Part shown: one piece after another, positions 29,915-33,807 of the stretch
Layout of the letters: the number at the start of each line of letters is the position of its first letter
How positions within the stretch are numbered: position 1 is the stretch's first letter
Assembly (NCBI RefSeq): GCF_044324875.1
Contig: NZ_CP172185.1
Reading direction: 5' to 3' (one strand)
Length of the DNA stretch: 64,000 nucleotides
Source of the DNA: Escherichia coli
Lineage (GTDB): Bacteria > Pseudomonadota > Gammaproteobacteria > Enterobacterales > Enterobacteriaceae
Program-made: the position numbers and the translations under genes
The notes under the pieces: model-generated
The model's input: the letters and a program-made list of their open reading frames with translations, nothing else
What the model was told of the DNA's origin: nothing
Database searches by the model: none

Positions 29915-29930
29915 TGTTAGTATTCTAACA
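29915..29930 (-). promoter_or_regulatory. DeoR operator O2 at deoP2
   Basis: Minus strand reads TGTTAGAATACTAACA, ending 44 nt upstream of deoC ATG. Confidence 0.85.
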
Positions 29931-29939
29931 TCTACTCCG

Positions 29940-30012
29940 CAACACACTTCGATATACATCACAATTAAGGAAATCTACTTACAAGTTTGCATCACTGTAA
30001 TGCGATCTGGTT
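29940..30012 (-). promoter_or_regulatory. deoP2 CRP/CytR binding region
   Basis: Minus strand reads TTATTTGAACCAGATCGCATTACAGTGATGCAAACTTGTAAGTAGATTTCCTTAATTGTGATGTGTATCGAAGTGTGTT with tandem TGTGA-type half-sites, matching the remembered deoP2 region. Confidence 0.6.
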
Positions 30013-30127
30013 CAAATAATTCACTTTCAAATGAATGCGTCAGTGGTGGCAAACGCATCAGGATCAAAGTGAACATCACGAAACTTCTTACAATGGCGCA
30101 TCACCTTCGGCATAAAAGGAAAAGAAG

Positions 30128-31678
30128 ATGCCCACTTCTCATGAGATTGCACTGCAACAACGTTGCCAGCAAATTGTCACCAGTCCGGTACTTAGCCCGG
30201 AGCAGAAGCGCCATTTTCTGGCGCTGGAAGCAGAAAACAATCTGCCTTATCCGCAGCTTCCTGCCGAAGCCCGCCGCGCGCTGGATGAGGGTGTAATCTG
30301 CGATATGTTTGAAGGTCATGCGCCGTACAAACCGCGCTATGTCTTACCCGATTACGCCCGTTTTCTGGCGAACGGTTCCGAATGGCTGGAGCTGGAAGGC
30401 GCGAAAGATCTTGATGATGCACTCTCTCTGCTGACCATTCTTTACCACCACGTACCGTCGGTCACATCGATGCCGGTCTACCTGGGGCAACTGGATGCGT
30501 TGTTGCAACCGTATGTTAGAATTCTAACACAAGACGAGATCGATATTCGAATAAAACGTTTCTGGCGTTACCTCGACAGAACCCTGCCAGACGCCTTTAT
30601 GCACGCCAATATCGGCCCGTCTGATTCGCCCATCACCCGTGCAATCTTACGTGCAGATGCAGAGCTGAAGCAGGTTTCACCGAACCTGACCTTTATCTAC
30701 GATCCTGAAATCACCCCTGATGACCTGCTGCAGGAAGTGGCGAAGAACATCTGTGAATGTAGCAAACCGCACATCGCCAACGGTCCGGTGCATGATAAAA
30801 TTTTCACAAAAGGGGGCTACGGGATTGTGAGCTGTTACAACTCACTGCCGCTGGCGGGTGGTGGCAGCACGCTGGTACGCCTTAACCTGAAAGCCATTGC
30901 CGAGCGCAGCGAATCGCTGGAAGACTTCTTTACGCGCACTCTACCGCACTACTGCCAGCAGCAGATCGCCATCATCGATGCGCGGTGTGAATTCCTCTAT
31001 CAACAATCACACTTCTTTGAGAATAGCTTCCTGGTGAAAGAAGGGCTGATTAACCCTGAACGTTTTGTGCCAATGTTTGGCATGTATGGGCTGGCGGAAG
31101 CGGTTAACTTGCTGTGTGAAAAAGAAGGGATTGCCGCGCGCTACGGTAAAGAGGCCGCCGCAAATGAAGTGGGTTATCGCATCAGCGCGCAACTGGCGGA
31201 GTTTGTCGCCAATACCCCCGTGAAATATGGCTGGCAAAAACGCGCCATGTTGCACGCACAGTCGGGGATCAGTTCTGATATCGGCACCACGCCGGGCGCA
31301 CGCTTGCCGTATGGCGATGAGCCAGATCCGATCACCCATCTGCAAACTGTCGCCCCGCATCATGCTTATTATTATTCCGGCATCAGCGACATTCTGACGC
31401 TCGACGAAACCATCAAACGTAATCCGCAGGCGCTGGTACAGCTTTGCCTCGGTGCCTTTAAAGCCGGAATGCGTGAATTTACCGCCAATGTCAGCGGTAA
31501 CGATCTGGTTCGCGTTACCGGTTATATGGTGCGTTTGTCGGATTTAGAAAAATATCGCGCCGAAGGTTCACGTACCAACACCACCTGGCTGGGCGAAGAG
31601 GCCGCACGCAATACTCGTATTCTGGAACGCCAGCCGCGCGTGATAAGCCATGAACAGCAGATGCGCTTTAGTCAGTAA
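30128..31678 (+). CDS. yjjI: Glycyl-radical-enzyme-like protein YjjI (DUF3029)
   Basis: 516 aa; C-terminal glycyl-radical-type fingerprint RVTGY; followed by overlapping radical-SAM activase gene. Confidence 0.9.
30514..30529 (-). promoter_or_regulatory. DeoR operator O1 (deoP1), inside yjjI coding sequence
   Basis: Perfect 16-bp palindrome TGTTAGAATTCTAACA; centre 599 bp from O2 centre. Confidence 0.8.
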
Positions 31679-32513
31679 GATTATCCCCTTCTCCTGCGTT
31701 GACGGGCCAGGCAGTCGTCTGGCTCTGTTTTTGCAGGGCTGCAATCTGCGTTGCAAAAATTGTCACAATCCGTGGACGATGGGACGCTGCAATGACTGCG
31801 GGGAGTGCGTGCCGCAGTGTCCGCATCAGGCGTTGCAGATTGTTGACGGCAAAGTGGTGTGGAACGCTGTGGTTTGCGAGCAATGTGATACCTGCCTGAA
31901 GAGGTGTCCGCAACATGCCACGCCAATGGCGCAATCCATGAGCGTGGATGAGGTGCTTAGCCATATCCGCAAAGCGGTGCTGTTTATTGAAGGGATAACG
32001 GTAAGCGGCGGCGAAGCCACGACCCAACTGCCGTTTGTAGTGGCGCTGTTTACTGCTATAAAAAACGATCCGCAACTGCGCCACCTCACCTGCCTGGTGG
32101 ACAGTAACGGTATGTTGAGCGAAACCGGCTGGGAAAAATTGCTCCCGGTGTGCGACGGCGCAATGCTCGATCTCAAAGCGTGGGGGAGCGAATGTCATCA
32201 GCAATTAACCGGACGCGATAATCAGCAGATTAAGCGCAGCATCTGTTTGCTTACCGAACGCGGTAAGCTGGCGGAACTGCGTTTGCTGGTAATCCCTGGC
32301 CAGGTGGATTATTTGCAACACATCGATGAGCTGGCGGCGTTTATCAAGGGACTTGGCGATGTTCCGGTACGCCTGAACGCGTTTCATGCCCACGGCGTGT
32401 ATGGCGAGGCGCAAAGCTGGCCGAGTGCCACGCCGGAAGACGTTGAGCCATTGGCTGATGCGTTAAAGGTGCGCGGGGTGAGCCGGTTAATATTTCCGGC
32501 GCTATATTTGTGA
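31650..32513 (+). CDS. yjjW: Glycyl-radical enzyme activating protein (radical SAM plus ferredoxin-like Cys clusters)
   Basis: 287 aa; CNLRCKNC (CX3CX2C) radical SAM motif, additional CxxCxxC clusters, SGGE; overlaps yjjI by 29 nt. Confidence 0.9.
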
Positions 32514-32515
32514 CA

Positions 32516-33807
<1,292 letters not shown>

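Follow-up and report, generated by a model that had tools for sequence, protein, structure and literature searches.

The yjjI-yjjW glycyl-radical enzyme and activase pair of Escherichia coli: gene context suggests a possible role in anaerobic nucleoside catabolism

The yjjI-yjjW locus and its products

The window analyzed here is a 64,000-nucleotide stretch of Escherichia coli DNA (contig NZ_CP172185.1 of assembly GCF_044324875.1) in which yjjI is followed on the same strand by yjjW (Table 1). An earlier note on this DNA had described the two genes as overlapping by 29 nt, and this figure is exact. The locus shares 98.2% identity with chromosomes of E. coli in which RefSeq annotates the same two genes, and the window YjjI matches the K-12 protein at 512 of 516 residues. 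Of 5426 complete E. coli genomes, 5422 carry the yjjI-yjjW region at a coverage of at least 80%, which makes the pair core in this species. The pair is also found in Haemophilus, Salmonella, vibrios, the bee-gut genus Gilliamella and many uncultured anaerobes, as well as in one archaeal locus and in an organism that reads UGA as Trp (likely a Mollicute). The order yjjI then yjjW is kept in 78 of 80 genome loci and 69 of 86 metagenome loci.

Table 1. Coordinates of genes, motifs and regulatory sites, numbered from the first nucleotide of the window
Feature	Position	Strand	Details
DeoR operator O2 of deoP2	29915..29930	.	TGTTAGTATTCTAACA, reverse complement TGTTAGAATACTAACA; deoC-yjjI intergenic region
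CRP site of deoP2	29948..29963	.	TGTGATGTATATCGAA on - strand; ~170 bp upstream of yjjI ATG
yjjI CDS	30128..31678	+	516 aa, YjjI-family glycyl-radical enzyme
Perfect DeoR operator O1	30514..30529	.	TGTTAGAATTCTAACA; within yjjI ORF, codons Y129-T134; 599 bp from O2
Candidate third DeoR operator (OE)	30793..30808	.	TGATAAAATTTTCACA; four consensus mismatches; inside yjjI, 279 bp past O1
Cys loop S235-C236-Y237-N238	30830..30841	+	C236 = 30833-30835, putative thiyl-radical residue
Glycyl-radical motif R462-V-T-G465-Y466	31511..31525	+	Residues 462-466; G465 = 31520-31522; aligns with G734 of PFL 'RVSGY'
yjjI 3' end / yjjW 5' end overlap	31650..31678	+	29 nt; same overlap annotated by RefSeq
yjjW CDS	31650..32513	+	287 aa, radical-SAM glycyl-radical activase
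Radical-SAM [4Fe-4S] motif C31-X3-C35-X2-C38	31740..31763	+	CNLRCKNC, residues 31-38; aligns to PflA CX3CX2C
Two CX2CX2CX3C ferredoxin-type motifs	31788..31907	+	Residues 47-57 and 76-86; auxiliary-cluster insert of YjjW

That yjjI-yjjW encodes a glycyl-radical enzyme (GRE) and its activase is close to certain, because the family HMM scores lie far over their cut-offs, the AF2 model supports the assignment, G465, C236 and R462 are invariant and the glycyl motif and Cys loop align to PFL (G734 and C419). YjjI scores 790 bits against TIGR04040 (cut-off 498.3) and 733 bits against Pfam PF11230 (cut-off 23), covering profile positions 1-485 of 485. The AF2 model has a pLDDT of 91.4 and a pTM of 0.91, and the conserved, putative thiyl-radical Cys sits on a finger loop within a ten-stranded alpha/beta barrel. 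The C-terminal RVxG[FWY] motif with its conserved Gly, by which the GRE superfamily is recognized, is present in the RVTGY form read by the earlier note; across 24 relatives of 33-90% identity R462 and G465 never vary, and Y466 hardly does. The cysteines of YjjI are at residues 13, 58, 209, 211, 236, 276, 287, 330 and 440, none of them near the Gly loop, and C236 is the sole invariant one, both among the 24 relatives and in an alignment of a distant clade. It aligns to PFL C419, and S235 occupies the place of PFL C418. The window YjjI has no Pfam match to PFL-like (PF02901) or Gly_radical (PF01228) at E <= 0.01, no solved structure was matched using the single sequence as query, and the family profile gave only weak matches to PFL, HPAD, YbiW and NrdD (E 4e-4 to 4e-3). 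Some distant YjjI relatives have faint or weak precomputed PFL-like or Gly_radical matches.

YjjW bears out the description of a CX3CX2C motif with extra ferredoxin-like Cys clusters, the latter comprising two CX2CX2CX3C motifs within a region (residues 44-90) matched by Fer4_9, Fer4_7 and Fer4. It also has Radical_SAM and Fer4_12 Pfam matches, a DGPG motif (residue 18) and the SAM-binding motif GGE (residue 120). With the N-terminal CX3CX2C these are features of PflA/PflC-type activases, and the two auxiliary-cluster motifs are a further feature of the PflC type. The protein scores 397 bits against TIGR04041 (cut-off 250.2) and matches the PflA structures 8fo0 and 3c8f at 1.7e-18. NrdG models give it 49-63 bits, against cut-offs of 126-131, and PFLE_PFLC-type activase models score higher. 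In several distant lineages the activase, at 243-251 aa, has no ferredoxin insert.

To our knowledge YjjI is apparently the last GRE of E. coli K-12 without a reaction, those of PflD and YbiW having reportedly been assigned in 2024. The pair itself is already known, and its gene context is the new element here. The earlier statement that no reaction has been assigned to YjjI agrees with the databases: the names in NCBIfam, where TIGR04040 and TIGR04041 were both still 'hypoth_equivalog' in June 2026, and in K-12 RefSeq ('DUF3029 domain-containing protein YjjI') carry no substrate. Literature mentioning yjjI (subscription-only papers were outside the search) yielded no substrate or function; what bears on function consists of regulatory and omics mentions and a computational guess of 'nitrogen metabolism' from 2011 (PMC3228777).

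Regulatory sites around and within yjjI

In the Enterobacteriaceae yjjIW is divergent from deoCABD, and the DeoR operator O1, which marks deoP1, is inside yjjI. In the window, DeoR operators lie both in the deoC-yjjI intergenic region and within yjjI. The position of the candidate third operator would agree with that reported for OE (Valentin-Hansen 1986). The O2 palindrome is as quoted in PMC5326754, and the distance between O2 and O1 equals the P1-P2 spacing of deo (PMC3334521). Given that O1 lies inside yjjI, deoP1 is antisense within this gene. O1 occurs at +371 to +389 of yjjI in 29 of 29 deoC-adjacent loci (+386 or +389 in 28 of them) and is absent from yjjI wherever yjjI does not adjoin deoC. 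The operators within yjjI could simply be deo regulation overlapping a neighbor. yjjI and the deo operon of E. coli are transcribed divergently, not together.

With regard to CRP, a ChIP-seq peak labelled 'yjjI/deoC' contains exactly TGTGATGTATATCGAA (PMC4287617), the CRP site of deoP2. The lone match to an FNR box upstream of yjjI with no more than two mismatches (29949-29962) is this same CRP site; we therefore claim no FNR site, and the case for FNR control comes from ChIP and expression studies. In ChIP, yjjI is among the targets of FNR, on which its anaerobic activation depends (Category 1; PMC3688515), yjjI and yjjW are both flagged as FNR-activated (PMC2634741), and in Yersinia intermedia anaerobic induction was 4.3-fold for yjjI and 2.1-fold for yjjW (PMC3792023). 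Because FNR activates it directly, the pair is made only anaerobically. Promoter and terminator scans at the locus gave nothing beyond shuffle expectation.

The expression data also bear on a role of YjjI in nitrate/nitrite respiration or in nitrogen-oxide or nitrosative-stress metabolism. Co-expression in E. coli places yjjI with nitrate/nitrite-respiration genes rather than with deo (PMC3228777; PMC6643234): it is in the core of an expression bicluster, conserved between E. coli and Salmonella, that includes narGHJI and other nitrogen-metabolism genes with FNR/NarL-like motifs (PMC3228777), and it has been grouped among respiration genes (PMC6643234). We nevertheless consider this role very unlikely. 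The co-expression is explained by the FNR control common to anaerobic genes; nar, nir, nrf and NO-detoxification genes lie beside yjjIW in none of the approximately 170 loci examined; and NO inactivates GREs themselves (PMC11888291).

Gene neighborhoods and a proposed function

Nucleoside transporter or catabolic genes lie within 8 kb of yjjI in 30 of 67 informative metagenome loci, which come without taxonomy and with only approximate ORF calls and BLAST-cluster families. Counted by YjjI cluster (65% identity clustering) the figure is 11 of 19, and such genes are in yjjI's own co-directional block in 26 of the 67 loci and 9 of the 19 clusters. The enrichment would be roughly 25-fold, as estimated from typical gene counts. 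The distant YjjI relatives are 42-59% identical to the seed protein and about 35% identical to the E. coli protein.

The arrangements differ from one group of loci to another. Four metagenome loci have the order udp-bmp-yjjI-yjjW-ABC-permease-permease-deoC-add-deoB-punA, and in the one of these that was scanned (L167) YjjI and all the catabolic enzymes exceed their NCBIfam cut-offs. Four others have yjjIW-bmp-ABC-permease-permease, and a further four, with GC contents of 0.52-0.56, have bmp-ABC-permease-permease-yjjIW. Among solved structures, the Bmp binding protein matches TmpC (2fqw), a nucleoside receptor, as well as related basic membrane lipoproteins. Single loci have rihC-like, ribokinase-like, deoD and phosphodiesterase genes with yjjIW, an MFS gene and bmp, or psuK-psuG-like genes after the ABC genes downstream of yjjIW. 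In Gilliamella the neighbors are add, a 5'-nucleotidase gene, cdd and deoA, and yjjIW-nupC(-PNP) is found in two metagenome loci and in H. influenzae (PMC5609409).

About half of the informative loci have no nucleoside genes near yjjIW. These include loci of Vibrionaceae, Shewanella and Proteus/Providencia, and also one actinobacterial-type and one archaeal locus, whose contexts gave no functional pointer. Other gamma-proteobacterial neighbors include genes for a LysR regulator, an MCP, an L,D-transpeptidase, TerC and a methyltransferase, as well as moeA/moeB and folE. Outside the Enterobacteriaceae, Gilliamella and Pasteurellaceae we found no shared theme except a LysR gene that recurs in convergent orientation and, in Shewanella, an aldehyde dehydrogenase gene directly upstream on the same strand with a Zn-ADH gene nearby, which would be compatible with an aldehyde or ketone product. 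In one clade, genes for a 135-aa protein and an AlkD-like protein lie downstream of yjjW.

Given these neighborhoods, we favor a link of YjjI to nucleoside or pentose metabolism; the case that comparative genomics makes for such a role is guilt by association throughout. The more specific proposal, that this conserved and intact orphan GRE with its dedicated activase performs an accessory step in anaerobic nucleoside scavenging and catabolism, we regard as evenly balanced. Judging from the motifs, the AF2 model and the literature, YjjW should cleave SAM to generate a radical at Gly465 of YjjI, and the radical would pass to Cys236, which would attack the substrate. The substrate may be an imported nucleoside or its ribosyl or pentose(-phosphate) part, used alongside the Deo enzymes. 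The chemistry, for which we go by the anatomy of the enzyme, is the least certain element and might begin with hydrogen abstraction as in RNRs and proceed to a C-O (or C-N) elimination on the sugar; that YjjI performs such an elimination on a ribosyl moiety is a tentative suggestion, and a doubtful one. Since the NrdD-like barrel comes without the second reducing Cys of NrdD, the step would be either redox-neutral or dependent on an external reductant such as formate. Canonical nucleoside catabolism is already covered by the known Deo, Udp, Add and Cdd enzymes, and for this reason the 'missing step' that YjjI might supply is undefined.

GREs have repeatedly been a source of new gut-relevant anaerobic chemistry, as with choline, hydroxyproline and isethionate. 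The gene context makes the function of yjjI-yjjW experimentally approachable, as the link to nucleoside transport and the Deo pathway narrows the substrate candidates to nucleosides and pentose phosphates, a small set of commercially available compounds. The Deo link also points to regulatory questions around DeoR, CytR and FNR.

Comparison with known glycyl-radical enzymes

YjjI and YjjW resemble PflB and PflA in that the RV[ST]GY motif and the Cys loop align and YjjW matches PflA structures, but they differ in that Ser235 replaces Cys418 of PFL and PflA has no ferredoxin insert. PFL requires the adjacent Cys418-Cys419 pair, and because of the Ser235 replacement its acyl-enzyme mechanism is unavailable to YjjI, which has S235-C236 there with the Ser kept in at least 90% of relatives. 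YjjI is also 240 residues shorter than PFL and without the PFL-like Pfam match. We thus regard it as extremely improbable that YjjI is a 2-keto-acid formate-lyase, that is, a C-C lyase of the PFL/TdcE kind, even though the profile similarity with PFL around the Cys loop, itself weak, has an E value of 4e-4 and an EcoGene-era annotation, quoted in PMC3228777, listed the H. influenzae orthologue as a homologue of pflB.

A second comparison is with the PFL-type 'eliminases' that have PflC-type activases: PflD and YbiW of E. coli, CutC, IslA, HypD and glycerol/propanediol dehydratase. If the nucleoside context were incidental or lineage-specific, YjjI might be such an enzyme, converting an unrelated small molecule (a diol, amino-alcohol, sulfonate or anhydro-sugar phosphate) to an aldehyde or ketone. 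We think this rather unlikely, on the following grounds: (i) the Glu of the canonical G-C-x-E Cys loop is absent from YjjI, which has S-C-Y-N instead; (ii) the E. coli protein has neither of their Pfam matches; and (iii) nucleoside genes occur in at least eight arrangements over clusters with GC contents of 0.28-0.56, which makes chance unlikely. YjjI is about 250-300 residues smaller than the eliminases, and YjjW scores far under the cut-offs of the eliminase-partner activase families.

The remaining comparison is with NrdD, the class III ribonucleotide reductase. hhalign aligns YjjI to E. coli NrdD with a probability of 89.7%, with the Cys loop misplaced in the alignment; sequence identity is 13-17% and YjjI is some 200 residues shorter. 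YjjI could be a true reductase, a stripped-down relative of class III RNRs that turns a ribosyl substrate, whether nucleoside, ribose-1-P or ribose-5-P, into its 2-deoxy form with formate or another donor, either for salvage of dNTP precursors or to make RNA-derived pentose cleavable by DeoC. This is unlikely in our estimation. NrdD's second active-site Cys (C175 in E. coli, C79 in T4), on which the reductive half-reaction depends, has no counterpart: N174-C175 falls in a two-residue gap of YjjI (P-R-Y--V-L-P-D-Y), where the hhalign alignment is locally of uncertain reliability, and the YjjI family (24 relatives and the distant-clade alignment) shows no conserved Cys besides C236. The C-terminal four-Cys zinc site of NrdD is missing as well, there being no YjjI Cys past residue 440, and the window YjjI has no ATP cone, allosteric specificity site or NRDD Pfam match. 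YjjW is of the PflA/PflC kind and carries a ferredoxin insert with two clusters, unlike the small NrdG, and E. coli already has three RNRs. The neighbors of yjjI are catabolic (deo, udp, add and transporters) and not biosynthetic.

A broader reading is that YjjI represents a third functional GRE lineage, beside the PFL-type enzymes and the RNRs, with RNR-like C2' chemistry on nucleoside-level or pentose-phosphate substrates that serves catabolism and not DNA synthesis. We consider this distinctly unlikely. YjjI might, for example, remove the 2'-OH (or 2'-O-methyl) of RNA-derived ribosyl units and so feed the deoxyribose branch, in which DeoA/DeoD and DeoB would act before DeoC yields glyceraldehyde-3-P and acetaldehyde. 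If this is true, the ribose of nucleosides would be fermented by an anaerobic route that has gone unrecognised, and in enterobacteria this route would be tied to the DeoR loop, the P1 operator of which lies inside yjjI. An RNR-like chemistry put to catabolic use would, if real, bear on how RNRs diverged from the other glycyl-radical enzymes.

The yjjI-yjjW pair and its expression

The earlier note had read an overlapping glycyl-radical enzyme (GRE) and activase pair from the sequence, and its coordinates, motifs and 29-nt overlap all held: an ORF listing of 27-36 kb returned both genes exactly, in the same direction, and RefSeq annotation of E. coli chromosomes shows the same overlap. The RVTGY motif of YjjI spans residues 462-466; in YjjW, CX3CX2C is CNLRCKNC (residues 31-38), with extra ferredoxin-like Cys motifs at residues 47-57 and 76-86, DGPG (residue 18) and GGE (residue 120). 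YjjI scores 733 bits on Pfam PF11230, in a match along the full length, and 790 bits on TIGR04040 (cut-off 498). YjjW, with Radical_SAM and 4Fe-4S domains, matches TIGR04041 at 397 bits (cut-off 250), and the activase models that rank next (hydroxyproline dehydratase activase, PFLE_PFLC, PflA, CutD and others) were all far under their cut-offs. The observation is confirmed and a chance motif match is ruled out; the pair belongs to the already-described YjjI and YjjW families and to the glycyl-radical enzyme and activase superfamilies and is not new as a sequence feature.

The gene order, deoD-deoB-deoA-deoC (minus strand), yjjI-yjjW, then yjjV-yjjU-ytjA-osmY-prfC (minus strand), has the deo-yjjIW-yjjV arrangement of E. 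coli. At the DNA level, the identity to E. coli chromosomes is 98.2%, and their RefSeq annotation has these two genes as well. YjjI shares 512 of 516 residues with the K-12 protein, and at least 80% of the region is present in 5422 of 5426 complete E. coli genomes. A tandem array of five REP/BIME-type units, each ~100 nt long, lies between yjjW and yjjV. Identity to the first unit is 72-94%, and every unit matches Rfam naRNA4 (RF02564) on the minus strand at 68-79 bits (gathering score 59.5).

That the reaction is unassigned also still stands: in the open-access literature, none of 29 papers naming yjjI and 19 naming yjjW gives a substrate, NCBIfam (June 2026) still grades both models 'hypoth_equivalog' and the K-12 RefSeq name is still 'DUF3029 domain-containing protein YjjI'. 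A preprint from 2025 that lists the glycyl-radical enzymes of E. coli makes no mention of YjjI. Anaerobic, FNR-dependent expression is strongly supported: yjjI is a direct, FNR-activated target in FNR ChIP (PMC3688515), both genes were flagged as FNR-activated in an HU-regulon study (PMC2634741) and both are induced anaerobically in Yersinia intermedia (PMC3792023). Because yjjIW cluster with nar and other nitrogen-metabolism genes in co-expression data, a computational study in 2011 guessed at 'nitrogen metabolism' and also predicted an NrdD-like fold (PMC3228777). A nitrate- or NO-linked role, for which this clustering speaks, is one rival to the role in nucleoside scavenging that we favor from gene context.

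Regulatory sites in and around yjjI

Genes and sites at the deo-yjjIW-yjjV junctions (nt positions)
Feature	Position	Location	Detail
O2, DeoR palindrome	29915-29930	deoC-yjjI intergenic	TGTTAGTATTCTAACA
CRP-like site 1	29948-29963	deoC-yjjI intergenic	deoP2 CRP site
CRP-like site 2	30001-30016	deoC-yjjI intergenic	
yjjI	30128-31678		516 aa
O1, DeoR palindrome	30514-30529	inside yjjI, codons Y129-T134	TGTTAGAATTCTAACA, perfect
Weaker DeoR-like site	30793-30808	inside yjjI	279 bp further in than O1
yjjW	31650-32513		287 aa
REP/BIME-type units	32517-33073	yjjW-yjjV intergenic	five, tandem

The two DeoR palindromes are spaced by exactly 599 bp. Since this spacing and the operator sequences match the published deoP1-deoP2 distance of 599 bp and the published DeoR operators (PMC5326754, PMC3334521), the yjjI coding sequence contains deoP1 and its operator in antisense orientation. 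The DeoR repression loop takes in the promoter of yjjI together with its initial ~400 nt. The weaker site is at what we take to be the place of the third DeoR operator, OE, which is thus probably antisense within yjjI as well. In the 29 loci with deoC beside yjjI, which range from Escherichia to Edwardsiella and Hafnia, the intragenic operator is always kept; its place within yjjI is +371 to +389 (+386 or +389 except in one locus). It is missing from all examined loci in which yjjI lacks deoC as a neighbour.

In ETEC CRP ChIP-seq, the peak labelled yjjI/deoC has the exact sequence of CRP-like site 1, and a second peak falls within yjjI (PMC4287617). Site 1 also resembles an FNR box (2 mismatches), and its dual CRP/FNR use is conceivable; a candidate FNR box at 29949-29962 was rejected, its sequence being the deoP2 CRP site under the ChIP-seq peak (PMC4287617). 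The layout gives DeoR, CytR and CRP a way to influence yjjI; it may just as well have come about passively because deoC and yjjI are neighbours.

Genomic neighbourhoods and the nucleoside link

Among 80 genome loci, all gamma-proteobacterial-type with at least 59% identity, yjjW follows yjjI in 78. Neighbours otherwise vary, with three prominent patterns: deoCABD divergent from yjjIW in Enterobacteriaceae and Hafniaceae; add, 5'-nucleotidase, cdd, deoA, (5'-nucleotidase), yjjI and yjjW on a single strand in Gilliamella; and, in Shewanella, an aldehyde dehydrogenase gene immediately upstream with a Zn-ADH gene close by. In about 30 loci of Vibrionaceae and Shewanella (L039-L073), a LysR-family regulator gene is found near the 3' side of yjjW, mostly convergent; this may be a dedicated regulator, in which case its ligand would be a clue to the substrate. 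A single 574-aa NCBI protein (P0004, 2.9-kb contig) joins PF11230 (100% identical to YjjI over 91% of the query) to a DeoC-family domain; an error of gene calling or assembly over the divergent deoC-yjjI junction probably explains it.

A metagenome scan was seeded with the distant YjjI clade, flanking ORFs were clustered and loci with at least 5 ORFs were counted (n=67). Genes for nucleoside uptake or catabolism (Bmp-type ABC transporter, NupC family, nucleoside phosphorylases, IU-nucleoside hydrolase, ribokinase-like kinase, DeoB, DeoC, Add) lie within 8 kb of yjjI in 30 of the 67 and share its co-directional block in 26; per YjjI sequence cluster (65% identity), the figures are 11/19 and 9/19. 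The clearest case, L167, is tightly packed as udp-bmp-yjjI-yjjW-ABC-permease-permease-deoC-add-deoB-punA, its catabolic enzymes all exceeding NCBIfam cut-offs and its YjjI scoring 707 bits. A distant representative, L091, carries a rihC-like hydrolase, ADP-ribosylglycohydrolase, ribokinase-like kinase, deoD, phosphodiesterase/sulfatase, yjjI, yjjW, MFS and Bmp. The structures that the Bmp protein matches are those of the nucleoside receptor TmpC (2fqw) and related basic membrane lipoproteins. The order differs among loci: bmp-yjjIW-ABC-permease-permease, yjjIW-bmp-ABC-permease-permease, bmp-ABC-permease-permease-yjjIW (GC 0.52-0.56), the Pasteurellaceae type yjjIW-nupC-PNP, and one ending in psuK-psuG-like genes (L109); this variety favours selection acting repeatedly over the inheritance of a single block. 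[quoted passage not shown]

From this context, YjjI probably serves anaerobic nucleoside scavenging, its substrate being an imported nucleoside or its pentose(-phosphate). An eliminase with an unrelated substrate is a rival reading. The link to nucleoside genes was not seen in about half of the lineages, including Vibrionaceae, Proteus/Providencia, one actinobacterial-type and one archaeal locus. We know of no earlier use of nucleoside-operon association, or of a DeoR operator within the ORF, to frame YjjI function, and the gene context turns a long-standing orphan into a directly testable case.

Several loci have features of their own. In one metagenome lineage, a class II (B12-type) ribonucleotide reductase (RNR) gene with an ATP cone (L121:4591-7020) lies ~1 kb upstream of yjjI-yjjW-bmp-ABC-permease-permease-amidohydrolase-PNP. 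One low-GC clade (L131-L142) has a short YjjW (243 aa) without the ferredoxin insert, and after it come a protein of 135 aa that matches no family, an AlkD-like 'DNA_alkylation' protein and an IU-nucleoside hydrolase; in L137, L138 and L142 a LacI-type regulator gene is immediately upstream of yjjI. In the homologue at L086:1264-2805 (P0145, GCA_024449855.1), a single in-frame TGA stands at a Trp of the database protein, which makes it probable that the host translates UGA as Trp (Mollicutes-like code 4). Directly upstream is a BPD_transp_2 permease gene; no yjjW follows directly downstream.

Proposed chemistry and relation to known enzymes

YjjI family members are few: when 1.84 billion representatives were scanned exhaustively with HMMER, 537 matched, only ~25 of them both full length and below 60% identity. 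An alignment of 24 members (33-90% identity) has 12 invariant positions (G83, G120, D123, H159, L174, T196, P214, C236, E305, G418, R462 and G465), C236, in an S-C-Y-N motif, being the sole invariant Cys; a second alignment of the distant clade gave the same picture. When the family profile is aligned with PDB sequences, the G734 motif of pyruvate formate-lyase (PFL) falls on 'vRvtGY' and its 'YAIACCVS' on 'YGIVSCYN', pairing C236 with PFL C419 and S235 with C418. With strong support, YjjW is predicted to place a radical on Gly465, and Cys236 is the predicted working thiyl radical. A PFL-like keto-acid lyase, another rival reading, is excluded by Ser235.

Solved PflA structures align with YjjW at 1.7e-18, and a single-sequence search of solved structures detected no relative of YjjI. 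In fold comparison, YjjI scored 31.1, 28.2 and 28.1 with class III RNRs (9d3x, 8p23, 4u3e), 22.5-27.3 with PFL-type GREs (PflD, IslA, CutC, PFL, HPAD, propanediol dehydratase, HplG, HypD, YbiW, BSS) and 18-22 with class II and I RNRs; it is a minimal glycyl-radical barrel, marginally nearer NrdD than the PFL-type enzymes. A true ribosyl reductase is a further rival reading; against it, the hhalign match with E. coli NrdD (probability 89.7%) has NrdD N174-C175, C175 being the reducing cysteine, facing a two-residue gap in YjjI. Without that cysteine, the YjjI step would either be redox-neutral or draw on a reductant from outside. Much more tentatively than the scavenging role, we propose that YjjI abstracts a hydrogen from the ribosyl ring, with C-O or C-N elimination as the next step. 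The product would enter the Deo branch; the aldehyde dehydrogenase and ADH of Shewanella fit a carbonyl product.

Unlike NrdD, YjjI has no ATP cone, and it lacks the zinc ribbon, there being no Cys beyond residue 440. Defining features of NrdD, PFL and the G-C-x-E eliminases were tested for and are absent from YjjI, which places the pair outside those families, although it would work in the manner of NrdD and the PFL-type eliminases.
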